Numbered from the stretch's first letter, positions 4,612 through 62,279 are shown. The stretch is 64,000 bases of DNA from a candidate division WWE3 bacterium (GCA_943354835.1 CALRDH010000003.1:12939-76938); one strand, 5' to 3'. The notes: a model not told the origin generated them from the letters alone. Program-made: numbers and translations.

Positions 4612-5781
4612 ATGCTTATTGAAAATTCACTTATTTCAGCTGACTCCATAAACAACTCACCTCCACTAGCCGAACCTACGCATTATTCATTAAATGGAGC
4701 CACACCCATACTAGAAATCATAGAACAGCAGGCTGTCAGACCACCTGGCGGTGATCACTATATCGGAGGTTTTTACTCCGCAATATCGGCATTAACAAGA
4801 GGAGGAAATAATCGGATTGTCGATCTTTTACAGCAAGTATACGAAATTAGACCAATGACTCCAGAACACCACACTAACCTATTATTTAGAGCAGTACAAT
4901 CAGTGTTTATGAAAGAACCTGGATACCCAAATAGATATACAACTTCTCAAAAATGGATACAGTCATTGATAGATTTGGTAAATGACGAAGAAATGTTCGA
5001 AGCTGTAAGAGAGGCCCTACTAACTAAAGACACTACTACAACAGTTTATCAGCGCTATGCAGGTGAAAGAGCTTTAATGACAGCAATAACCAGAGGGAAA
5101 CCTACTAAAGCCGTGGATTTAGGTTGTGGTGGGAATTATGGATTACCCGGAATGAGCATAGGAGAAGAATTTAAACCAATCAACGATAATACTCCCAACC
5201 ATATTCTGAATCGCTTACTATCTGATCCATTTTCATTAGAAGAAGGGCTTGCTATTGATAGAGAAGACCCATATAACTTAGACGCTATTAACTGGAGACA
5301 TTCATGTGGTTTCTATCCTACCGAGCTTGAGAGTGGAGGACTTCAAGAAGTTTTAGTATTAGAAGAAAGATTATCCGTAGATAAAGCAGTTAGGTTTTAC
5401 CAAGGTGATCTACTCGCATTACCAATAGGAAGTGAACTATCAGAGGCTTATTATGATTTTGTGTTAATAAATACAATGCTTTATCAATTACAATCGGAGC
5501 TTCAGGCTAAAGTTATCCAAAATGCACGTAAATTATTAAAACCAAATGGTAAGCTTTTCATACAAGACTTTGCATTCAAAGATACAAGCAGTACAACTAA
5601 ACTTTGCTTTGAAGGCGTTGAATGGGGAGTAAAAGGAAACTACAGATTATTTGCAACTGGTGCATCTAATGATGATGAAATGTTCGAGGTTTTTAAATGG
5701 AATAACGGTCGTTGCCGACAAGTTGCAGAAGGGGAAGATTTCCAACGATTTTTTAGTTCTATCGGATATAACCTCAACTAG
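4612..5781 (+). CDS. Hypothetical protein with class-I SAM-methyltransferase-like motifs
   Basis: 'KAVDLGCGGNYG' resembles motif I and 'LLKPNGKLFIQDF' resembles the post-I motif. Otherwise unrecognised, 389 aa. Confidence 0.35.
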   Translation: MLIENSLISADSINNSPPLAEPTHYSLNGATPILEIIEQQAVRPPGGDHYIGGFYSAISALTRGGNNRIVDLLQQVYEIRPMTPEHHTNLLFRAVQSVFMKEPGYPNRYTTSQKWIQSLIDLVNDEEMFEAVREALLTKDTTTTVYQRYAGERALMTAITRGKPTKAVDLGCGGNYGLPGMSIGEEFKPINDNTPNHILNRLLSDPFSLEEGLAIDREDPYNLDAINWRHSCGFYPTELESGGLQEVLVLEERLSVDKAVRFYQGDLLALPIGSELSEAYYDFVLINTMLYQLQSELQAKVIQNARKLLKPNGKLFIQDFAFKDTSSTTKLCFEGVEWGVKGNYRLFATGASNDDEMFEVFKWNNGRCRQVAEGEDFQRFFSSIGYNLN

Positions 5782-5845: not shown

Positions 5846-6352
5846 ATGAAATTCAGCACATACTTTGTCAAAGATAAGTATATAAGTGCAAAAACGGTTT
5901 TTGTACCGAGCAATTCGTTTCCGTTTGGAATTCCGATAACCACTCCATTCACTTTTCCTATTTATCAGCACAAGTACCTTTTAGCTCTAGACAAAAATAA
6001 CTGGTGGAATCCACTTGGCGGGCATATGAATGAAAGTGAAGACTGGATAAGTTGTGTAAAACGCGAAGCATTGGAAGAAGGCGGGGTGGTGATAGATAAC
6101 GTAGAAATGTTTGGTTATGTTCTATCTGAAATAATTTTTGACGAGTATAATAAATACCCAACAAAGGGCATTTTGCCAATTACGCATTCACGAGTAAAGA
6201 TGTATAAAGAAAATTGGCAAAAGTTTGAAACGAAAGACAGAAAACTTTTTACAGCTGACGAAGCAAAAGGTGCTTTGCTAAAAAGAGATGATAATAAACA
6301 AATGTATGAGGTTTTTGAATATTTAGAAAAATTATTAAAATTGTATGTATAA
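5846..6352 (+). CDS. Nudix hydrolase
   Basis: Nudix box 'GGHMNESEDWISCVKREALEEGGVV' (GX5EX7REUXEEXGU). Confidence 0.6.
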   Translation: MKFSTYFVKDKYISAKTVFVPSNSFPFGIPITTPFTFPIYQHKYLLALDKNNWWNPLGGHMNESEDWISCVKREALEEGGVVIDNVEMFGYVLSEIIFDEYNKYPTKGILPITHSRVKMYKENWQKFETKDRKLFTADEAKGALLKRDDNKQMYEVFEYLEKLLKLYV

Positions 6353-50772: not shown

Positions 50773-50958
50773 TTATTTCCTTTTTGATAACAAAATTACT
50801 CCGAACACTACAAATAAAAGTGGCCAAAGTTTCCACATGGTTTCCCATACGCCATATTCTATGATTCCAAAATTATTTAGGATCATTATAACCCCTAGGA
50901 TTATTAATATAACCGCGGCCCAAAAACCTGAGTTTAGTTTGTTTTCTTTTGTTTCCAT
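50773..50958 (-). CDS. Small two-TM membrane protein
   Basis: 61-aa hydrophobic ORF. Its start region overlaps the 3' end of the ThyA-like gene by 25 nt. Confidence 0.35.
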   Translation of the reverse strand: METKENKLNSGFWAAVILIILGVIMILNNFGIIEYGVWETMWKLWPLLFVVFGVILLSKRK

Positions 50959-52502
50959 GACTTGATTGTATCAAATTCTAACGGATTATCTTGTGTAAAT
51001 TTAAGACCTAATTTTATTGCCGTTTCGGCTCTTTCTAATTGCCTGCCAATATATAGTGCATTTCCTAAAGTTGATATGGCAAGTCCATTATCGATTTCAA
51101 ATGAAAGTAGTCGTGATGCATACTTTTTGTTTCCATCAATCCGCCATTCTTTTATTTCTTCGTTTCCCCTCGGTGTCATCCATCTAACAACGATTTCGTC
51201 ACCTTCGACCATTACGCTTAAATTTCCTCTAGGATCCCATTCGCAGTATCCTTTGTCATTTTTTTCGTATAGTTCTTTTGCATCCTGATAATTATGCTCA
51301 TAAATATGTGCCATGTTAGAAATTGTTATTAACGAGCCCATTTCGACACCAAGTTCACTTGCAATTTTTGATTGGAGTTTTCTTAGTGCAAAAGCGTTTA
51401 ATGGCCATGCGTTGTACATATCGTTGCTTCTGAAATATGCCGTTTGTGTTAATTTCCCTTCGTATATTTGGCATTGAATCAAAAATAAACATGGAGTTTT
51501 TGTAGGCGGCCTTTTTGGAAAAACATCTGTAAATGGATTTGCTAAAAGCGCGATTGCTCCTTTATCGTATTTGAAACCTTTTAATTTTCTAACGATTGAA
51601 ATAGCAACTTGATCAAATCCTCCGTTTGTAAAAAATTCATCGAATCTTTCAAGTTTTAACCATGGATAAATTTCTTTAAGGGCATCGATTTCCAAGTGTG
51701 CAAAGTTAAATAACCTTTCACCATATGTGTAATCCTCTGTATGCGGATCTGGATCAAAAAATCCTTTAAAATATTTTTCTAAATCTTCTTTTGAGAATGG
51801 CAGATATTCTGGAACATGCCAATTTTCTGGGTCTTCGTCTGTAACAACTGCAGTCAGATTTAGCATTTCTTTCATTGTTTTTGATGTATCAGAAACGTAA
51901 TTTATAACGGCTTCAGATTCTAAACCAAACATGCTTATGTGTTTTAGTATTGAAATATAGGCTTCAGCAATTGTAGGACGCCTTATTTTTGTGGAATCAA
52001 TTTCGCTTGGATAATTTTGTACATCGGCCTTTGGCGGATCGGGGAAAATCTCGGGCTCACGCCATTTTATAGGGGCTACCCTTTTTATCAGTATGTCATT
52101 AAGTTTCTCAACGCCTATCATGTCTATAACTTCTACGTTTTTGCGAAATGCCTCAAGTGCTTCACGTGGTATTTCCTTTTCGATTTTCGCAATGTCATCG
52201 CCGATTACTTTGTAATCGGCATCGACGCCATTTTTCATAAAACGCAAAAACGCTTCACCGCTTCCCATTAAATCACTTCCAACAAGATATAATTTTGTAA
52301 TAACTGGATTTGCAAGAATATTTCGTAATATGTAATTTATGCCTTTTTTTGTATAAAGCTGGCCGGCGATATAAAAATCATCGGGGTCAACCATTTTCTC
52401 TAAAGTTTCCTTTGGAGTCCACAAAGTCGCAATCGCAACACCTGAATCGGGATTTGATAAAGTCAAACGGTCCTTAAAATAAATCGGCCAAGACATAAAC
52501 AA
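50934..52502 (-). CDS. Thymidylate synthase (ThyA) family protein with long N-terminal (~300 aa) and C-terminal (~100 aa) extensions
   Basis: Catalytic core 'TPCLFLIQCQIYEGKLTQTAYFRSNDMYNAWPLNAFALRKLQSKIASELGVEMGSLITISNMAHIYEHNY' aligns with ThyA '[41 protein letters not shown] ... GDTHLYSNH' (Cys nucleophile, RS-D, N..AS, H-Y-NH). Confidence 0.6.
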   Translation of the reverse strand: MFMSWPIYFKDRLTLSNPDSGVAIATLWTPKETLEKMVDPDDFYIAGQLYTKKGINYILRNILANPVITKLYLVGSDLMGSGEAFLRFMKNGVDADYKVIGDDIAKIEKEIPREALEAFRKNVEVIDMIGVEKLNDILIKRVAPIKWREPEIFPDPPKADVQNYPSEIDSTKIRRPTIAEAYISILKHISMFGLESEAVINYVSDTSKTMKEMLNLTAVVTDEDPENWHVPEYLPFSKEDLEKYFKGFFDPDPHTEDYTYGERLFNFAHLEIDALKEIYPWLKLERFDEFFTNGGFDQVAISIVRKLKGFKYDKGAIALLANPFTDVFPKRPPTKTPCLFLIQCQIYEGKLTQTAYFRSNDMYNAWPLNAFALRKLQSKIASELGVEMGSLITISNMAHIYEHNYQDAKELYEKNDKGYCEWDPRGNLSVMVEGDEIVVRWMTPRGNEEIKEWRIDGNKKYASRLLSFEIDNGLAISTLGNALYIGRQLERAETAIKLGLKFTQDNPLEFDTIKSWKQKKTN

Positions 52503-53079: not shown

Positions 53080-53823
53080 CTATATCTTCACGTGTTTTAG
53101 TCTTTCAAAATTCCTTCCAGGTTCAAGGTTTGTTTCTTCTAGGAATTCTTCTTTTATGTCTTCGGGAGATAGTGCATTTTCGTGTACCAATAGTGCTTTT
53201 TCTTTTATGTCCATGTATTTTGTGATTTCAAAGTATTTAACATCTGGATACGAATATGAGTCAGAAAATAGTAATTCTCTGACGATGTGAGGTTTTAATC
53301 CGATTTTTGAGAAGTGTTCAGGAAAAAATCCACGATCTCTTGAATATGGATATGTTGCATCGAGTACAATTGATGCAGTGTTTCTATGATCACGATGATT
53401 AACCCAGCGAGTTTCTTCATTGAATGTGTTAATCGGATCAAATGGATTATGTGTAATTATGATATCTGGCCTAAATTGCCTGATATGAAAAACGATTTTT
53501 TCAATATTTGGCATTGTATTTTCAACTTCACCATCTGGAATTCCTAAATTAAAATTTTCGGATTCTGGAATACCTAGTGCAAGACCTGCCAATATTTGCT
53601 CTTTAACACGGAGTTTTGCAAATTCTGCTTCAACAATATCATCTCTGTCTTGAAATCCCTTTCCACCGTTTGTAGTAACAATAAGCCTTACTTGTTTACC
53701 TTCGGCAATAAGTCTTGCGACAATTCCTCCACAAATAATCTCATTATCATCTGGATGAGCAGTGACAATCAAAACCCTACTCTTATCGCCAAAAACCTCG
53801 TTAAAAGAATCTTTAATTGACAT
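53080..53823 (-). CDS. PIG-L/LmbE family N-acetylglucosaminyl deacetylase
   Basis: 'VLIVTAHPDDNEIICGGIVARL' (AHPDDE motif), 'HRDHRN', and a Zn-ligand pattern of the LmbE fold. Confidence 0.8.
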   Translation of the reverse strand: MSIKDSFNEVFGDKSRVLIVTAHPDDNEIICGGIVARLIAEGKQVRLIVTTNGGKGFQDRDDIVEAEFAKLRVKEQILAGLALGIPESENFNLGIPDGEVENTMPNIEKIVFHIRQFRPDIIITHNPFDPINTFNEETRWVNHRDHRNTASIVLDATYPYSRDRGFFPEHFSKIGLKPHIVRELLFSDSYSYPDVKYFEITKYMDIKEKALLVHENALSPEDIKEEFLEETNLEPGRNFERLKHVKI

Positions 53824-53839
53824 GGTGAATTTATAACAC
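53794..53839. repeat. Direct repeat copy 1 (46 bp): promoter-proximal region plus first 12 codons of the PIG-L deacetylase gene
   Basis: aacctcgttaaaaGaatctttaattGacatggtGaatttataacac. Identical at 43 of 46 positions to 54669-54714. Confidence 0.85.
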
Positions 53840-54648: not shown

Positions 54649-54668
54649 AAAATTATTATGCCATAAAT

Positions 54669-54714
54669 AACCTCGTTAAAAAAATCTTTAATTAACATGG
54701 TAAATTTATAACAC
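54669..54714. repeat. Direct repeat copy 2 (46 bp), forming a 17-codon uORF whose TGA overlaps the DHFR-like start (ATGA)
   Basis: aacctcgttaaaaAaatctttaattAacatggtAaatttataacac. Minus-strand translation MLIKDFFNEVIYGIIIL* terminates at 54645-54647, overlapping ATG 54646-54648 of the DHFR-like gene. Confidence 0.85.
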
Positions 54715-54771
54715 GAACTTACAAAACGAATTATCCTAAAATGAAAAATGTGGTAAAAATGTAAATCCAGT

Positions 54772-55989
54772 TTAATAATTCTTGTCTTGTACTCTCAAAA
54801 TATATTTCTCCAATAATGGAACTGCAAAAGAATAATTTCCGTTACTATCACGATACAATAATCCTGCAGCAATTAACCTTTTGAACATTTGGCTAACCTG
54901 AGATCTACCAAAGCTTTTCACTTTACCTCCCTCAGATAAAGATACAATTTCATGCACTTTAAATTTTGTTTTTCCTGAATTTGCTATTAAAGTTAATAAA
55001 TCCCTTTCCCTCTCTGTTGCTTTTGCCCACCTTCCCGAGAAAAAATCACTATCTAGTTTTTGAATAATTGCATCCATAGGGATAGAGAGTTCTTGCCCCG
55101 CACTTAATTGTTGTAGAAATACATCAAATACTTCACGACAGATATACTGTATAAAAAATGGATAGCCACCTGATTGTTGAGCAATTTCTTCAACTGCATT
55201 TTCGTTAAATCTTAAAGGGTGTTGTGACATTTCTACAGGTTTGAGTATCGCCATTTTACTCTCTTCTTTAGTGAGTTTCTCTAACATAACAACATGGAAC
55301 AATCTTTCAGAGTAAGTCCTTGTTTCCACCAAGTTAGCAAGTAACATAGGTAATCCTGTAAGGACAAGAATGAATGGTATGTTTTTCTTCTGAATATATG
55401 TAAAAACATCCAAAAGTAATGAAAGTGGATATTGCTTATCTTCTGAATGATCACTTAGAGTTTGTGCCTCGTCATACGCAAATACAAAACCCTTTATAGT
55501 CTGTAATGTTTCTAAATGTTGCCAGACCATTTCCAAAGTTGCTTTTAACTTATCGCTTATAAACCCAGGAATTTCAGCAAAATAAGCCACCAAGTAAGAA
55601 TAATTTAAGTAAACATCGCTTGTCTTTTTATCGTCACCAAACCCGATTTCGTTTTTTGCTATTGTACCGATCTTTATGTTTGATGTTATCAAAGCAATAT
55701 CTGTTAAAATCCTCATAGCCATAGTCTCTTCGCTAACGCTTACACTTTCAGCACAATCAGTACCTGCCCACAACCAATTATCTTTTCGCGCAACTGGTTT
55801 TAAGCTTTCCAATAAAACTGTTTTACCAATACCGCGCAATCCTGAAATTATCAAATTTTTTAAGATTGTATTTTGCTTGAGCAATTTTTCGAATTCTTGT
55901 ATTTCTAGGTTGCGTCCGGCTAAATATGGCGGCGTATGCCCAGCACCAGGTTTAAAAGGGTTTTCAAATGTTGAAATATAATTACTCAT
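54772..55989 (-). CDS. Orphan AAA ATPase (archaeal-ATPase/PF01637-like P-loop with C-terminal winged-helix region)
   Basis: Walker A 'ISGLRGIGKTVLLESL', Walker B-like 'FVFAYDEAQTL', and a C-terminal helical/wHTH-like tail. Confidence 0.55.
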   Translation of the reverse strand: MSNYISTFENPFKPGAGHTPPYLAGRNLEIQEFEKLLKQNTILKNLIISGLRGIGKTVLLESLKPVARKDNWLWAGTDCAESVSVSEETMAMRILTDIALITSNIKIGTIAKNEIGFGDDKKTSDVYLNYSYLVAYFAEIPGFISDKLKATLEMVWQHLETLQTIKGFVFAYDEAQTLSDHSEDKQYPLSLLLDVFTYIQKKNIPFILVLTGLPMLLANLVETRTYSERLFHVVMLEKLTKEESKMAILKPVEMSQHPLRFNENAVEEIAQQSGGYPFFIQYICREVFDVFLQQLSAGQELSIPMDAIIQKLDSDFFSGRWAKATERERDLLTLIANSGKTKFKVHEIVSLSEGGKVKSFGRSQVSQMFKRLIAAGLLYRDSNGNYSFAVPLLEKYILRVQDKNY

Positions 55990-55995
55990 ACAAAC

Positions 55996-56019
55996 AACGT
56001 TACAATGCTACGTAACGTT
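55996..56019. promoter_or_regulatory. Perfect 8-bp inverted repeat AACGTTAC-N8-GTAACGTT (candidate operator)
   Basis: aacgttac aatgctac gtaacgtt, directly upstream of the AAA ATPase start (55989). Confidence 0.4.
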
Positions 56020-56067
56020 AATCAACAGGCTAATACAGACCACACTACGTTCGTATTTTATTCGGGG

Positions 56068-56107
56068 CGTTACAAAGTGTTACCCCATGGGCTAACGCTT
56101 TGTAACG
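56068..56107. promoter_or_regulatory. 40-bp imperfect palindrome (18/20 arms) CGTTACAAAGTGTTACCCCA|TGGGCTAACGCTTTGTAACG
   Basis: The reverse complement of the right arm is cgttacaaagCgttaGccca, against the left arm cgttacaaagTgttaCccca. Contains the nested palindrome CCCATGGG and shares the CGTTAC half-site with the upstream inverted repeat. Confidence 0.45.
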
Positions 56108-56157
56108 TTTAAGATAAAATGTTGATATCACTTGCATTTTAACAATATGCCAATCGT

Positions 56158-56679
56158 CTATCCAACTGCACAAATTTCTAAATCTCTTAGTTTTGCCGTT
56201 TCAGTTTTGCAGTCGGTGTAAATAAATGAAGCGAATGCGGTTCCTTGGTTTTCATCAACGATGTATTTGATTAATGCTTTTACAGATGGAAATAAGTTAT
56301 CACAATTAGTTAGCTCTTCTTTTGTTAACCAAACAAACTCACCTTCTAAAGTTTGTTTAATTTCACCGGACTCATAGTCTCCAGAATAGTGAAAAATTAG
56401 CCAGTTTTCATTCGGTTTATGAGGTTCAATTTCTGTAACAACGGCTTCAAGACGAATATTTTTTACAGTCAGACCTGTTTCTTCCATTAATTCACGCTTG
56501 GAAGCCCTTAAAGGCTCTTCGTTTTGATCAACCTTTCCACCTGCAGGATGAAAAAAACCTGGAGCAATCTTTTTTTGCTCGGACCTTTTCAAAACCAAAA
56601 TCTTTCCATCCTTACGGACAAACATATTCGCACACATGACGATATTATGAGTATTTATCGCGGAATTAATCGATTGCAT
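56158..56679 (-). CDS. Nudix hydrolase
   Basis: Nudix box 'AGGKVDQNEEPLRASKRELMEETGL'. Confidence 0.65.
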   Translation of the reverse strand: MQSINSAINTHNIVMCANMFVRKDGKILVLKRSEQKKIAPGFFHPAGGKVDQNEEPLRASKRELMEETGLTVKNIRLEAVVTEIEPHKPNENWLIFHYSGDYESGEIKQTLEGEFVWLTKEELTNCDNLFPSVKALIKYIVDENQGTAFASFIYTDCKTETAKLRDLEICAVG

Positions 56680-56743: not shown

Positions 56744-57190
56744 ATGTATCAAGATGTTTTAAATCAAAAGGCAAGGGATATTATTAAGGAGAATATTTAT
56801 TTATCACTTGGTACTGCCGATGTAAATCCTTGGGTTTCACCGCTTTTCTACTGCGTTGATCCGCAATATAACTTCTATTTTATTTCACAACTTGATAGCT
56901 TACATACTAGAAATATGACGAAAAAACCAAATGTTGCATTTGCTATATTTGATTCTCATCAAAAAGAAGGTGAAGGAAATGGAATTCAAGGAAACGGAAC
57001 AGTAAAGTTATTAGAAGGAAACGATTTAACTGAAGGACTAAAACACTACTCAACTACGTTCATTGAATTAGGAGCTGACCAACTATCGGGAAACGCACCT
57101 TATCGCCTTTTTAAACTCTCAACTGACAAATTTTACGTCCTGGATACAGAAGCAGAAACTGATAAAAGAGTAGAAGTATTTACAAATTAA
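56744..57190 (+). CDS. Pyridoxamine 5'-phosphate oxidase-like FMN-binding split-barrel protein
   Basis: 'ARDIIKENIYLSLGTADVNPWVSPLFYCVD ... FYFISQLDSLHTRNMTKKPNVAFAIFDS' is the PNPOx-like/general stress protein 26 pattern. Confidence 0.55.
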   Translation: MYQDVLNQKARDIIKENIYLSLGTADVNPWVSPLFYCVDPQYNFYFISQLDSLHTRNMTKKPNVAFAIFDSHQKEGEGNGIQGNGTVKLLEGNDLTEGLKHYSTTFIELGADQLSGNAPYRLFKLSTDKFYVLDTEAETDKRVEVFTN

Positions 57191-58088
57191 TAGAAAACCC
57201 ACGAATTTCATTAACATCTAAATATCTTGATAAAATAGCCAGATCTTTATTTGTAATTCGTACGCTCCAACCCAAATTATTAAAAATGCCTGATTGTCGG
57301 CCACCAATCGTAAAAGGCACGTAATTTAACACCAATAGCCCATCTTTATATACGAGTTGCTCAAAATATAAGGTAACCTTTATCCCTTCCTCTAGCCCTA
57401 TACCACTAGATACAATGGAACTCAATATTTTTGGCTGAAAGCCTTGTATTTGGATACCTCTAAGGTCATCTTTATCGAAATATTTAAATCCCATCTCAGT
57501 GATGTCTATAAATAAGCATTTTTTTGTTTTCTTAATATTCATAACCCCCATAGCACCACCAAATTGTTCAACGCTATCTAATAATTTACTTTTGACGATT
57601 GTTTCTATCGTAGATGCATTATTAGATCGAACTTTCTTACATTCCACTAGACATTCCTCAGATGGAAGATAAAAATCACATATCCTTCTACTAGCTTTAT
57701 TAAAGTTAGGATTAGATTTCAAGTCCAACACTTTGAAACCCTTAAGCCATAAGCCAGATTGAATTGCAATATTAAATAACCATCCAGGCATACCATTACT
57801 GAAATCAGAATCGCCTTTACTAAAATAATCTCCCATCTTACCCAAGTAATGCCTATCTTGAAATTCGAAATTCTGAATAGTGCTACCGGTTGCGGCAGAT
57901 AAAAAACCCGAATATAAAACATATTGTAAAAGCTGTATCCGATCATCAATAGTCCATTTATTTAATGATTTTTCTTCTAGTTCGGTAAGAAAATTTATAA
58001 GCTTAGTTAAATCCCCAGATGTACTGGCTAAACTAGGGTTTCCGCACGCATCTAACCATATTTTTTTTAATCTATCAAAAGGAACCAT
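57180..58088 (-). CDS. Hypothetical protein
   Basis: 302-aa ORF. No motif recognised. Confidence 0.4.
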   Translation of the reverse strand: MVPFDRLKKIWLDACGNPSLASTSGDLTKLINFLTELEEKSLNKWTIDDRIQLLQYVLYSGFLSAATGSTIQNFEFQDRHYLGKMGDYFSKGDSDFSNGMPGWLFNIAIQSGLWLKGFKVLDLKSNPNFNKASRRICDFYLPSEECLVECKKVRSNNASTIETIVKSKLLDSVEQFGGAMGVMNIKKTKKCLFIDITEMGFKYFDKDDLRGIQIQGFQPKILSSIVSSGIGLEEGIKVTLYFEQLVYKDGLLVLNYVPFTIGGRQSGIFNNLGWSVRITNKDLAILSRYLDVNEIRGFSINL

Positions 58089-58827: not shown

Positions 58828-60534
58828 ATGAAAAAAAATACATTGCAAATAATTATAGACGCACTTTCGAAATTAGATAATACATCCGAAAAAGAGATAC
58901 TTAAAATACTGCGCGAAAACACAAAAGTAGGTGGCGGATTGTACTCAAAAAGCGAAATCTTAGCAGAAATTGAAAAGCTAAATAATCCACTTTATAAAAA
59001 GCTTGTACCTATAATAAAAATGAAATCCACTCGAACAATTTCTGGAGTTACTCCTGTTACCGTTTTAACAAAGCCTTTTCCTTGCCCTGGAAAATGCATT
59101 TTTTGCCCAAACGATGTTCGAATGCCAAAAAGCTACCTTTCAGACGAACCCGGCGCTCAACGTGCAGAAAAAAATCACTTTGATCCATATGCTCAAACTT
59201 TTAACCGACTTTTAGCTTACAAAAATATTGGACACCCAACAGATAAAGTTGAACTCATAATATTAGGCGGAACGTGGACATCTTATCCCGAAACTTATCA
59301 AATTTGGTACATAAAAAGATGCTTTGATGCTATGAATGATTTCAAAAACGCTGATGATACAACTTATAAATCAAAGCTCGAAATTCCATATGAAGAAAAA
59401 TCAATTCACGAAATAAACGGCGAAAAAATTACTGATTCATATAATAAAATCGTTTCGCAAGCAATAATCCCGATGCAATCTCAAGCCAAAACCGAAAGTG
59501 CAACATGGAAAGAACTCTTTGCTGTTCAAATTCAAAATGAAAATGAAAAAACTCGTTGCATTGGACTTGTAATAGAAACTAGACCTGATGAAATCACAGA
59601 ATCAGAAGTTATCAGAATTAGAAAACTTGGCGCAACAAAAGTTCAAATTGGTTTTCAAAGTCTAAACGATGAAGTTTTAAAGTTGAATCATCGCGGACAC
59701 GATGTTGCCACAACAAGAAACGCAGTAAAACTTTTACGCCTTGCTGGTTTTAAAATCCATGCACACTGGATGCCAAATCTGTATGGTTCTGATCCAAAAT
59801 CAGATGTAGAAGATTTCAAAAAAATGTTTAGTGATCCTGATTTTATGCCAGATGAATTAAAAATTTATCCGTGCTCGCTAATTCAAAGTGCTGAACTTAT
59901 GCAATATTACAAAAAAGGTTTATGGAAACCTTATACATTCGAAGAATTATCTTATGTTTTGGAAGAATGCTATAAATTAACTCCTGAATATTGCAGAATA
60001 ACAAGAATGATAAGAGATATCGGATCTCAAGACATTGTTGCTGGAAATAAAAAAACAAACTTTAGACAAATTATTGAACTAAATCTTAAAAAGCAAAAAG
60101 CTGAAATAAAAGAAATCAGATATAGAGAAATCAGAGGCGACGTTGTTGAGGCAGATGAATTAAACATAAAACAAACAAAATATGAGACTTCTGTCTCGAC
60201 AGAATACTTTCTGGAATACATTACCGACAAAAATAAAATCGCAGGATTTCTAAGGCTCTCAATTCCAAAAGTCGAAAACTATATTAGTGATCTAAAAAAC
60301 GCAGCCATAATTCGCGAAGTTCACATTTATGGACAAAGCATAAAAATCGGACAAAAAGACGAAGGCAAAGCCCAACACCTAGGACTTGGAAAAAAATTAA
60401 TCTTGCTTTCCAAAGAACTTACAAAACAAAATGGATTTGATAAACTAGCTGTAATATCATCAATTGGAACGCGTGAATACTACAAAAAACAAGGCTTCGA
60501 GATGAAAGAAGTATACCAAATAGCTGAAATTTAA
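58828..60534 (+). CDS. elp3: Elp3-family radical SAM/GNAT protein (tRNA wobble-uridine modification acetyltransferase homolog)
   Basis: Radical SAM 'CPGKCIFCPND' and a C-terminal GNAT 'IREVHIYGQSI ... GLGKKLILLSKE ... YYKKQGFE'. Start at ATG 58828 (MKKNTLQ), directly abutting the minus-strand methyltransferase start. Confidence 0.85.
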   Translation: MKKNTLQIIIDALSKLDNTSEKEILKILRENTKVGGGLYSKSEILAEIEKLNNPLYKKLVPIIKMKSTRTISGVTPVTVLTKPFPCPGKCIFCPNDVRMPKSYLSDEPGAQRAEKNHFDPYAQTFNRLLAYKNIGHPTDKVELIILGGTWTSYPETYQIWYIKRCFDAMNDFKNADDTTYKSKLEIPYEEKSIHEINGEKITDSYNKIVSQAIIPMQSQAKTESATWKELFAVQIQNENEKTRCIGLVIETRPDEITESEVIRIRKLGATKVQIGFQSLNDEVLKLNHRGHDVATTRNAVKLLRLAGFKIHAHWMPNLYGSDPKSDVEDFKKMFSDPDFMPDELKIYPCSLIQSAELMQYYKKGLWKPYTFEELSYVLEECYKLTPEYCRITRMIRDIGSQDIVAGNKKTNFRQIIELNLKKQKAEIKEIRYREIRGDVVEADELNIKQTKYETSVSTEYFLEYITDKNKIAGFLRLSIPKVENYISDLKNAAIIREVHIYGQSIKIGQKDEGKAQHLGLGKKLILLSKELTKQNGFDKLAVISSIGTREYYKKQGFEMKEVYQIAEI

Positions 60535-60536
60535 AA

Positions 60537-62279
60537 ATGCAAATTTCTGATCCAACACTGGGAAACAACGAACAGATAGCAACAATTTTACCAACAAATA
60601 CAGAACCACGATCAGAACGTTTTCAAAGATTCTTTCGTGAAAATGTTACAGGAGCATTCACAGAAAAAGAGCGGTTACAAAACGAAACTCACGTTGCAAG
60701 ATTTTGCGATACTTTTTTAAGACACCTTTCACCTTTCGAAAGAGTAGAAAAAGCAGAAGACATAAATAGTACAATGGTAAGTTTTGTAAATTGGGAAAAA
60801 CAGCAAGGAAGAGGACAGGTTGGTAGATGGATCGGTGGACAGGTCATGCAAATTGATAGAACTGATAATGTATATGACGTTATTGCACATGAAAGCATGC
60901 ATGTTCTACAAAATAACGGCACGTTACCACCAAACCATCCAATCACATATTCAATAAACGAACTTTTATTAGCGCAAAGAGGATCGATTCCAGTGTATCC
61001 ATCTGAAAGTAGTGAATTTGCAGCTATTAAATCAGAATATAAATCAAAATCAGCAAATGATTATTTTAACGAGGTTCTATCTGGAGGAAAAAATCTTCCA
61101 AAATGGTTTTGGGGCGGATGGAGACTAGACTTATCTGATGAAAGATACCAAAATATAGACCCACGAGACACAAGTTTACGAGATTTCAAAAGATTTTTAG
61201 AAATAGAAAAAGAAATAGAACCTGAAATACTAGCATGGGGCGAGGTTTCTCTTGACATTATGGGAGTAAAAGACGTCTATACAACCATAGCGAATATTGG
61301 AACATCAAGAGGCCTTCGTGCGTTTGGAGTCGGACATTTCACAGGTGATCCAAAAAATGCATGGACAGTTTTATGGCTTAACGCAACAGGGATGAAATTT
61401 GAAGATGCAGAAAGACTAGTTGTACAAAAATATCTTGATGGAACATTATCAGATTTTGATATAAAAAACCCAATAGAAGGAAAAGACTTCAAAAGGATAA
61501 AAACAGGAGAGGAAATATATAAAACGAGAAAATTAGATCAATCACCGATTGAAAGAACAGCTAACAAATATAAATTTCAAATTGAACAATATTTAAGGTT
61601 AGTAAAAAGGTCATTTAGGCAATTGCCACAAGAAGAGCTAGACAATAGGTATTCCTTATTTAGTGAATGGATATCATCAAACAAAGTAAAAGACACCGAA
61701 ACATCAGAGGTTTTTTTGGTAATGGATGAAATAACAAATCAAATGGATTTTGAGTTAAAAGAATCAGTAGAAGATAAAGTCGAGAAATCTGGAAAAATTT
61801 TTGCGTCTCATGACAGAAGTGGCACACGCAGAAAATTATCAATACCAAAAGTGATCCCTGGGAAAGAGTTTTCGACCAATCCCCCAGAATTCGAAACCGT
61901 TCTAACGGAAGAAGTCGGTATTTTCCACACACATATTTATCATGGATCCCCTCCTTCGATAATTGATTTACTAAATTTTATAGACGCTCCGGATAAATTT
62001 ATTTCTGTAATGGCCACACCTGAAAAAGATTACGTCTTTGTAAAGACTGACAAAGAATGTATTGATCGGAACAACAATAATAATAAAGGAAGCAAATTTA
62101 GAAATAGGGTTGGCCTTGCAAAATCATATATGCAGAGACTTTATAAAGGTGAAGACTCAGAAAAAGTAATCATAGAAATGGCAAAACTTGAAGGAATGGA
62201 AGTATTTATTAAAAATAAACCAAGTATTTCACGTCTAAGACAATCCAATCTAGGAATAATTCAATTCAAGAAGGTCTAA
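60537..62279 (+). CDS. Hypothetical protein (580 aa) with HExxH zincin-like motif
   Basis: 'NVYDVIAHESMHVLQNNG' contains HESMH. Begins 3 nt after the elp3 stop. No signal peptide. Confidence 0.4.
   Translation: MQISDPTLGNNEQIATILPTNTEPRSERFQRFFRENVTGAFTEKERLQNETHVARFCDTFLRHLSPFERVEKAEDINSTMVSFVNWEKQQGRGQVGRWIGGQVMQIDRTDNVYDVIAHESMHVLQNNGTLPPNHPITYSINELLLAQRGSIPVYPSESSEFAAIKSEYKSKSANDYFNEVLSGGKNLPKWFWGGWRLDLSDERYQNIDPRDTSLRDFKRFLEIEKEIEPEILAWGEVSLDIMGVKDVYTTIANIGTSRGLRAFGVGHFTGDPKNAWTVLWLNATGMKFEDAERLVVQKYLDGTLSDFDIKNPIEGKDFKRIKTGEEIYKTRKLDQSPIERTANKYKFQIEQYLRLVKRSFRQLPQEELDNRYSLFSEWISSNKVKDTETSEVFLVMDEITNQMDFELKESVEDKVEKSGKIFASHDRSGTRRKLSIPKVIPGKEFSTNPPEFETVLTEEVGIFHTHIYHGSPPSIIDLLNFIDAPDKFISVMATPEKDYVFVKTDKECIDRNNNNNKGSKFRNRVGLAKSYMQRLYKGEDSEKVIIEMAKLEGMEVFIKNKPSISRLRQSNLGIIQFKKV

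Follow-up and report, generated by a model that had tools for sequence, protein, structure and literature searches.

The spacer in front of an unannotated AAA+ ATPase gene in a candidate division WWE3 bacterium is probably (we would put it at about 60%) a cognate multi-site operator, through which the adjacent ATPase, a protein of Orc1/Cdc6-like fold, represses its own gene. The gene and its sites form one self-contained module that has been moved between genomic contexts. The original prediction for this DNA had suggested a multi-site operator for a dimeric DNA-binding protein and a possible self-regulation of the ATPase, and the comparative evidence supports the operator as well as the self-regulation: the sites travel with the gene, their words track the recognition helix, they are phased with a predicted promoter, and the ATPase is their sole constant neighbour. 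That the protein is dimeric was an assumption; half-sites in several arrangements fit an oligomerising AAA+ protein at least as well.

In the mechanism that we propose, the winged helix of the ATPase would read a ~5-bp half-site, GTTA(C/G). Two proximal sites, P1 and P2, lying 18 bp apart, would cover the spacer and the -10 element of the gene's own promoter (TTGATT-N17-TAACGT), from which transcription would begin at or next to the ATG, and protein bound at these positions would exclude RNA polymerase, hence negative autoregulation. A palindrome ~70 bp upstream would represent a second, distal array of four half-sites at 10-bp spacing, which probably serves to seed or stabilise a nucleotide-dependent oligomer, either through cooperative binding or through looping to P1 and P2. 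Binding by the ATPase itself, repression through this binding, the leaderless mRNA and the cooperativity of the distal array are all steps that we infer from sequence comparison.

Layout of the spacer and its sites

The window, that is, the whole stretch of DNA analysed here, is 64,000 nucleotides (64 kb) long, and the spacer covers 168 bp of it (55990-56157). A Nudix gene (56158-56679, minus strand) and the ATPase gene (54772-55989, minus strand) lie on either side, and since both are encoded on the minus strand, the spacer is downstream of the Nudix stop codon (56158) and upstream of the ATPase ATG (55989).

A perfect inverted repeat, AACGTTAC-N8-GTAACGTT, was found as predicted at 55996-56019, though a pair of palindromic sites of 10 bp each, spaced 18 bp apart, describes it better. 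P1 (56012-56021; TTAACGTTAC on the sense strand) abuts the predicted -35 and occupies the start of the promoter spacer, and P2 (55995-56003; sense GTAACGTTG) contains the predicted -10. In the related loci L001, L086 and L090, P2 occupies the same position. The AACGTT core of P1, 18 bp from P2, is kept in the window and in L001; at this position L090 has AATGTT, and only a GTTAG half-site is left in L086.

Also confirmed is the 40-bp palindrome without spacer at 56068-56107, whose arms match at 18/20 positions and which holds the nested palindrome CCCATGGG. It consists of four half-sites arranged as GTTA-N6-GTTA-N10-TAAC-N6-TAAC, which on the sense (minus) strand read GTTAC (56106-56102), GTTAG (56096-56092), GTAAC (56083-56079) and GTAAC (56073-56069). 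Between this distal array and the promoter lies a block, CCCCGAATAAAATACGAACGTAG (56045-56067, minus strand), conserved in sequence: L001, L090 and the window share it, as does the copy of the element downstream of the gene in L086, whereas the L086 upstream copy has diverged. By eye, the stretch of ~48 nt that separates the distal from the proximal sites does not appear notably AT-rich. One count in the original prediction has to be corrected, since the spacer holds four copies of the exact hexamer CGTTAC/GTAACG (55998, 56012, 56068 and 56102) and not five; it is the 5-mer core GTTAC/GTAAC that occurs five times (the additional copy is at 56079), together with a single CTAAC at 56092.

The hexamer shows no overall enrichment in the window (11 observed against 11.1 expected). 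This would suit an origin of the cluster by chance, or as a neutral relic of a dispersed repeat of the REP or MITE kind, but this explanation is almost certainly wrong. Four hexamers within 110 bp were matched in 0/300 dinucleotide shuffles, and the 18/20 palindrome exceeds both the runner-up in the window (15/20) and the best of 200 shuffles (16/20). The sites are moreover conserved in orthologs with 80-86% protein identity whose flanks are unalignable, and a REP or MITE element is contradicted by the lack of further copies in the 64 kb, where an 8-mer search allowing at most one mismatch gave chance-level frequencies. Perfect matches to the composite architectures AACGTT-N12-AACGTT and GTTAS-N5-GTTAS are confined to the spacer, so the statement that nothing comparable appears elsewhere in the window holds. 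A regulon or dispersed repeat inside the window was rejected for the same lack of further composite sites. No tRNA or known RNA was detected in the spacer, where Rfam is empty at the gathering score (best hit SCARNA7, E = 0.72).

Phasing of the sites with a predicted promoter

We infer a sigma-70-type promoter that has both P1 and P2 inside it and that would give a leaderless or near-leaderless mRNA. Its predicted -35 is TTGATT (56020-56025, minus strand), replaced by TTGACT in all relatives, and its predicted -10 is TAACGT (56002-55997) within P2, with TGTAAC (56004-55999) as an alternative. Transcription is predicted to start at, or within 2 nt of, the A of the ATPase start codon (55987-55989, minus strand), and no Shine-Dalgarno sequence was found upstream of this ATG. 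To our knowledge, leaderless translation has not been established for CPR bacteria.

The assignment of this promoter rests on positional conservation. The arrangement TTGA(C/T)T-N17-hexamer-N7-ATG is found in 6/6 class B/C loci, which comprise the subfamily of the window and its nearest clade, and the distance of 7 nt from the -10 to the ATG is likewise common to all six; the window, L001, L086 and L090 all have TAACGT as the hexamer, and L091 and L092 have TATACT. The loci L100 to L103 are similar, with TAATAT, TATATT or TAAACT at the -10 position, 6-9 nt before the ATG (TAATAT in L100 and TATATT in L101). A generic consensus scan did not list the window promoter, because its -10 TAACGT fits the consensus at just 3/6 positions. 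An archaeal promoter logic, prompted by an MtrA-ThyA fusion and Elp3-like genes in the window, was rejected, as the nearest genomes belong to candidate division WWE3 (CPR).

The same phasing recurs in the main clade of the family (class A), where the distance between the first base of TTGAC(A/T) and the start of a site is 4/5, 22/23 or 40/41 nt in 24/26 cases; these offsets place the sites on the -35, the -10 or the +1 region. Repeated or palindromic sites that overlap the predicted core promoter of the putative regulator are thus found both in the window (P1 and P2) and in class A.

The 40-bp palindrome

The original prediction also allowed that the 40-bp palindrome could form a long RNA hairpin. 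We consider it very improbable that the element is an RNA or DNA hairpin, be it a terminator or insulator for the Nudix gene or a structure in a 5'-UTR, and the most convincing reading of the palindrome is a distal array whose four half-sites lie on one face of the helix. The hairpin can claim a stable predicted RNA fold of the spacer (-45.4 kcal/mol, z = -2.9) and two compensatory changes in the L001 palindrome, but the changes in L086 are uncompensated, and when five copies of the palindrome from four genomes are aligned, invariance is limited to the four GTTA/TAAC blocks, while the positions between them drift. The pairing of the arms in this alignment (87.8%) was reached by 285/500 shuffles and the covariation score by 346/500. 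An analogous 50-bp palindrome with its own half-sites at 10-bp spacing is present in L091, and in L092 direct repeats of the L091 half-sites take the place of a palindrome, which speaks against a hairpin. The promoter is in addition predicted downstream of the stem, and Rfam gives no match.

As for a terminator, the promoter/terminator scan flagged IR1 followed by TTTGTATG as terminator-like; however, it flagged IR1 alone, the T-run after IR1 is missing in L001, and the 40-bp stem itself is not followed by a U-tract or T-run. The gene upstream of the palindrome is a different one, or is divergently oriented, in L001, L086 and L090. An intrinsic terminator for the Nudix gene was therefore rejected on the lack of a conserved U-tract and the variable upstream genes, and a structured cis-regulatory RNA on the missing Rfam match and a covariation not above that of shuffles.

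The ATPase and its fold

The ATPase (405 aa) has an AAA+ core with Walker A (GLRGIGKT) and Walker B (FAYDEAQ) motifs, a helical lid and a C-terminal winged helix. The tail, described as wHTH-like in the original prediction, is indeed a winged helix with H-H-H-beta-beta topology in the structure model (residues 326-392; 54814-55014, minus strand), carrying the recognition helix GRSQVSQMFKRLI and the wing YRDSNGNY. In the model the protein ends after the winged helix and one further helix, and possesses no sensor or effector domain; the STAND architecture of NOD, sensor repeats and an effector or LuxR-type HTH is accordingly not seen in it.

Compared as a whole, the fold is Orc1/Cdc6-like and PF01637-like, with the same order of AAA+ module, lid and C-terminal winged helix. 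The isolated winged helix is closest to the ArsR/SmtB, MarR, Fur and MecI repressors, as well as to PABY2304 and ORC1, with weak E-values in this fold search (0.008-0.06). At the sequence level the protein stands at the edge of known families. Pfam ATPase_2 (PF01637) scores 18.2 bits, below its gathering threshold of 33.2, and AAA_16 (PF13191) 30.3 against a threshold of 32.6; many homologs have a precomputed PF13191 match, which places the ATPase family at the border of AAA_16. Matches to nSTAND Pfam families are weak (E = 0.003-0.008), and no Pfam AAA or Cdc6_C match was obtained for the window protein. A profile search of PDB sequences returned no sequence relatives (best E = 0.4), and PADLOC (0 families) and NCBIfam gave no match either, so that no known anti-phage defence system was recognised in the ATPase. 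Literature searches on CTAAATTTAG, PABY2304, SSO1545 and COG1672 yielded nothing relevant apart from IniR. AAA+/STAND ATPases with DNA-binding domains, such as IniR and MalT, act as transcription factors (PMC5760070).

Site words and recognition helices across the family

More than 6,000 homologs of the ATPase are detectable, in CPR phyla, Firmicutes, Deltaproteobacteria and Alphaproteobacteria, and the module is hosted by CPR bacteria, Actinomycetota, Alpha- and Gammaproteobacteria, Firmicutes and plasmids. Identity of the ATPase among CPR bacteria, Proteobacteria and Firmicutes is ~50-60%, and remote members from metagenome contigs and from actinobacterial and proteobacterial plasmids are 26-31% identical. 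Distant members are carried by ~100 plasmids, where they are annotated just as 'ATP-binding protein'.

We compared ~90 homologous loci from many phyla. In nearly all of them 2-5 copies of a short, usually palindromic word occur within the 60-150 nt that precede the start codon, and the upstream sequence outside the sites is unalignable between loci while the words persist. Conservation upstream of orthologs, one of the checks attached to the original prediction, is seen for the 40-bp palindrome itself in L001, L086 (two copies) and L090. When exact, non-overlapping 7-mer pairs were counted and a region was required to beat 99% of its own shuffles, 20/68 upstream regions had significant repeats, against 0/116 controls. 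With at most one mismatch allowed, 42 copies of the class A word CTAAATTTAG lie within 200 nt upstream of 33 class A genes, against a single copy in ~131 kb outside these upstream regions, and 9/11 adjacent pairs are exactly 18 bp apart, the same spacing as between the AACGTT palindromes of the window. The full site of the window subfamily, CTAACGTTAG (L001), differs from CTAAATTTAG at two central bases only. Other clades have CTGTAC/GTACAG, CGTAAG/CTTACG, CTGTAA/TTACAG, GATAAG/CTTATC and more as their words, and repeated words are found upstream of the distant plasmid members too.

When all the ATPases are aligned, at least six word classes can be told apart, and each has a recognition-helix motif to itself: GRSQ.SQMF goes with AACGTT (the window class), SKSQ.SQMF with CTGTAC, S.SH.NQ with CTAAATTTAG (the main clade), PGNVNVLL with CTGTAA, NNEIQP with GATAAG, and RN.NATQQS with CGTAAG, which is also the word of SSSVAQY (L002). 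The site sequence thus co-varies with the DNA-reading residues of the putative regulator. This co-variation is confounded by shared descent, though L002, which is placed inside the main clade, has switched both helix and word.

The sites might instead be the operator of another host transcription factor. In STAND NTPases the equivalent winged helix is structural and does not bind DNA, but we regard a separate factor as quite improbable. The module is found in unrelated phyla and on plasmids with no shared neighbour, and the word co-varies with the recognition helix of the ATPase's own winged helix; a separate factor would need to be co-transferred every time. No conserved neighbour, partner gene or operon was found among ~100 flanking ORFs, and the ATPase, as the only gene always beside the sites, is therefore the sole constant candidate for the protein that binds them.

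Boundaries and genomic contexts of the module

The limits of the module can be drawn from its relatives. Protein identity to the window ATPase is 86% in L001, 81% in L086 and 80% in L090, and nucleotide similarity to these three loci extends from the outer edge of the palindrome (~56108-56124) to the ATPase stop codon (54771-54800). Nothing aligns outside this interval, and the neighbouring genes differ. A close syntenic relative of the window, L096 (Nudix 94% identical), has no ATPase gene, which shows that the Nudix gene and the ATPase are not linked. Its gene order is Elp3-like, methyltransferase and Nudix, followed by PIG-L, MtrA/ThyA, LiaF and LemA, and the Nudix stop (GTTGGATAGACGA) adjoins the PIG-L promoter. 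In the window this junction is broken at 56154/56153 by the module, which ends near 54728. The module is thus an accessory insertion at a variable spot. Between the Nudix/PIG-L junction and the palindrome lie 45 nt of inserted DNA (56109-56153, minus strand), delimited by the breakpoint relative to L096 and absent from L001 and L086; no site array is present in the 3' flank (54728-54771, minus strand), which runs from the ATPase stop to the right-hand breakpoint of the module. No clear target-site duplication was identified at the window breakpoints.

Across the family the gene is often situated among mobile-element or defence-island genes, and its GC content is lower than that of the flanks at 30/55 loci. 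No recombinase, transposase or helicase is consistently near the module among the ~100 flanking ORFs, with phage-type integrases at 2 loci. Judged by eye, GTTACAA and GTTAGCC do not fit the attC core GTTRRRY, and the element is not dif-like (11-6-11).

Several minor features were observed in addition. The Nudix/PIG-L intergenic spot is a hotspot for differing insertions. In the window, a 62-bp duplicate of the PIG-L promoter and first codons (54666-54727; genuine copy at ~53780-53839) separates the ATPase module from a DHFR-like gene and marks a second, independent insertion into this junction, comprising the DHFR-like gene and an 87-aa ORF. In L096, a gene for a 205-aa multi-pass membrane protein is inserted in the Nudix 3' end (5490-5520, 6124-6166), and a direct repeat of ~22 bp (TTAGAAATCTGTGCA / TTAGCAATCTGTGCA), a duplication of this end, bounds the insertion. 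The segment between the methyltransferase and Nudix genes is variable as well, with a 302-aa ORF without family match (57180-58088, minus strand) and a PNPOx-like gene (56744-57190, plus strand) in the window, and only a 105-aa ORF in L096. The Nudix protein matches the PADLOC candidate defence model PDC-S07 (E = 1e-15). A 522-aa fusion of MtrA-like, thymidylate-synthase-like and PterinBD-DUF4346 parts (50934-52502, minus strand) is kept in L096. In L001, codon 114 of the ATPase (~667-669) is an in-frame stop where the window has Glu (KNEIGF in the window, NRN*IGF in L001), which means either that this copy is a pseudogene or that the assembly is in error; the sites upstream of it are intact. 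Proximity to oriC, considered from a cumulative GC-skew minimum at ~59000-61000, was dropped, since this minimum coincides with the switch from minus- to plus-strand genes at ~58.7 kb.

Arrays downstream of the ATPase gene

Some loci have arrays after the stop codon. The ~85-bp palindrome element is repeated in L086 (3745-3835; also L087-L089), where another copy in direct orientation adjoins the ATPase stop. In all six loci of class F, the GATAAG clade (L049, L061, L062, L066, L075 and L080), GATAAG-N8-CTTATC-N4-CTTATC is present at both ends of the gene, ~30 nt before the start and either overlapping the stop or 0-40 nt after it, with differing neighbours. The main array of L102 is located after the stop (2716-2830) as two tandem ~48-bp units of GTTTAG/CTAAAC half-sites, and almost no distal array is found upstream. 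In L103 (Saccharibacteria), a ~45-bp palindromic element, AAAAACATA...TATGTTTTT, occurs once upstream (~1380-1420) and twice downstream (~2730-2880), its word being unlike the promoter-proximal CTAAATTTA site of the same locus. Overall, the upstream words of a locus are 3.7 times denser in the 200 nt after its stop codon than elsewhere, an excess driven by few loci, and none of the 33 class A loci has a downstream site. In L086 the downstream copy is followed by a GC-rich, terminator-like hairpin, and the sequence after this downstream palindrome is nearer to the CCCCGAATAAAATACGAACG block of the window than L086's own upstream copy is.

The downstream arrays in L086, L102 and class F are not accounted for by simple promoter occlusion. 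Possible explanations are looping, insulation against read-through, leftover tandem copies, or the integration and excision of a circular cassette. It is conceivable, though unlikely, that the arrays serve in the first place as the DNA on which the ATPase does its work, as an iteron- or ORB-like assembly site or as the ends or attachment sites of a cassette, with promoter overlap being secondary. A protein that purely regulated itself would be purposeless, so the sites may serve the main activity of the ATPase with regulation as a side effect. The Orc1/Cdc6-like fold would suit such a role, as would the insertion of gene plus sites in varying contexts, often among mobile-element or defence-island genes, the GC content of the gene below that of its flanks at 30/55 loci, the ~100 plasmids that carry members, and the presence of arrays at both ends of the gene in L086, L102 and 6/6 class F loci. 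The downstream instead of upstream position of the main array in L102 is what would be expected from a circular permutation. However, the lack of a consistent recombinase, transposase or helicase nearby, of an evident AT-rich unwinding element in the window spacer and of a clear target-site duplication at the window breakpoints speaks against a working target, and bracketing is a minority feature, being absent from the window and from the 33 class A loci. The tight phasing with the -35, -10 and +1 regions is rather a prediction of regulation.

A more specific proposal, decidedly doubtful in our estimate, is that the ATPase and its arrays make up a mobile 'initiator-plus-iteron' cassette, either a bacterial counterpart of Orc1/ORB or a single-gene element with binding arrays as its ends. 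Assembly of the protein on one flank of its gene, or on both, would then serve replication, maintenance, excision or exclusion, beyond self-repression. The bracketing arrays of L086, L102 and class F, the permuted appearance of L102, the insertion at a variable hotspot of the window, and contexts such as plasmids, ICEs and defence islands are compatible with such a cassette. The self-repressing operator remains our preferred reading.

Comparison with known systems

Archaeal Orc1/Cdc6 proteins with their ORB sites share the AAA+/lid/C-terminal winged-helix fold with the ATPase. The ATPase differs from them by having no sequence membership (no Cdc6_C or AAA Pfam match, AAA_16 sub-threshold), by its bacterial and plasmid hosts, and by the lack of a detected AT-rich unwinding element and of an MCM partner, and its sites are phase-locked to a putative sigma-70 promoter. 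The PF01637 proteins PABY2304 (2qen) and SSO1545 (2fna) are 16-18% identical to it, and ATPase_2 scores well under its cut-off (18.2 against 33.2); as we know of no assigned function or DNA sites for these two proteins, they offer no mechanism to borrow.

Regulation through such arrays is familiar from DnaA, acting at the DnaA boxes of the dnaA promoter, and from plasmid Rep proteins at iterons, both of which control their own genes through arrays of short sites in mixed orientation that overlap their own promoters. DnaA, also an AAA+ protein, and Rep resemble the ATPase in having an array next to, and overlapping, their own promoter, as at the ATPase spacer, but they belong to unrelated families with unrelated DNA-binding domains, and their sites also serve an origin. 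MalT and IniR are proteins of 800-900 aa with large sensor domains and LuxR-type HTHs that activate other operons, whereas the ATPase, at 405 aa, lacks sensor and effector domains, and no target other than its own gene was detected in the 64-kb window. The ArsR/SmtB and MarR repressors are the nearest folds to the isolated C-terminal domain and also use palindromic operators overlapping their own promoters; unlike the ATPase, they are small dimeric repressors without an ATPase module, and their operators usually have one or two sites, not at least six half-sites. The mechanism proposed here, self-control through repeated sites, is thus classical, but the actor is not: it is an unannotated ATPase family without a partner gene.

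The array sequence seems to have been re-specified many times along with the recognition helix, and the matched pairs of protein and DNA word form a natural series for studying how winged-helix specificity evolves. The module may represent a portable, possibly ATP-gated and self-limiting expression unit that works across phyla, and its sites give a handle on what a common 'ATP-binding protein' of mobile elements and CPR genomes does.

The class A two-site operator was also sought in viral contigs, and the one match obtained is about what chance would give and uninformative. It is an exact CTAAATTTAG-N8-CTAAATTTAG in the IMG/VR phage contig L099 (4261-4288), where it lies in intergenic DNA that follows phage structural genes, and the 800 bp left on the contig hold no ATPase; chance is a plausible source (expectation roughly 0.1-1), and if it were not chance, a phage carrying the sites of a host protein would be of interest.
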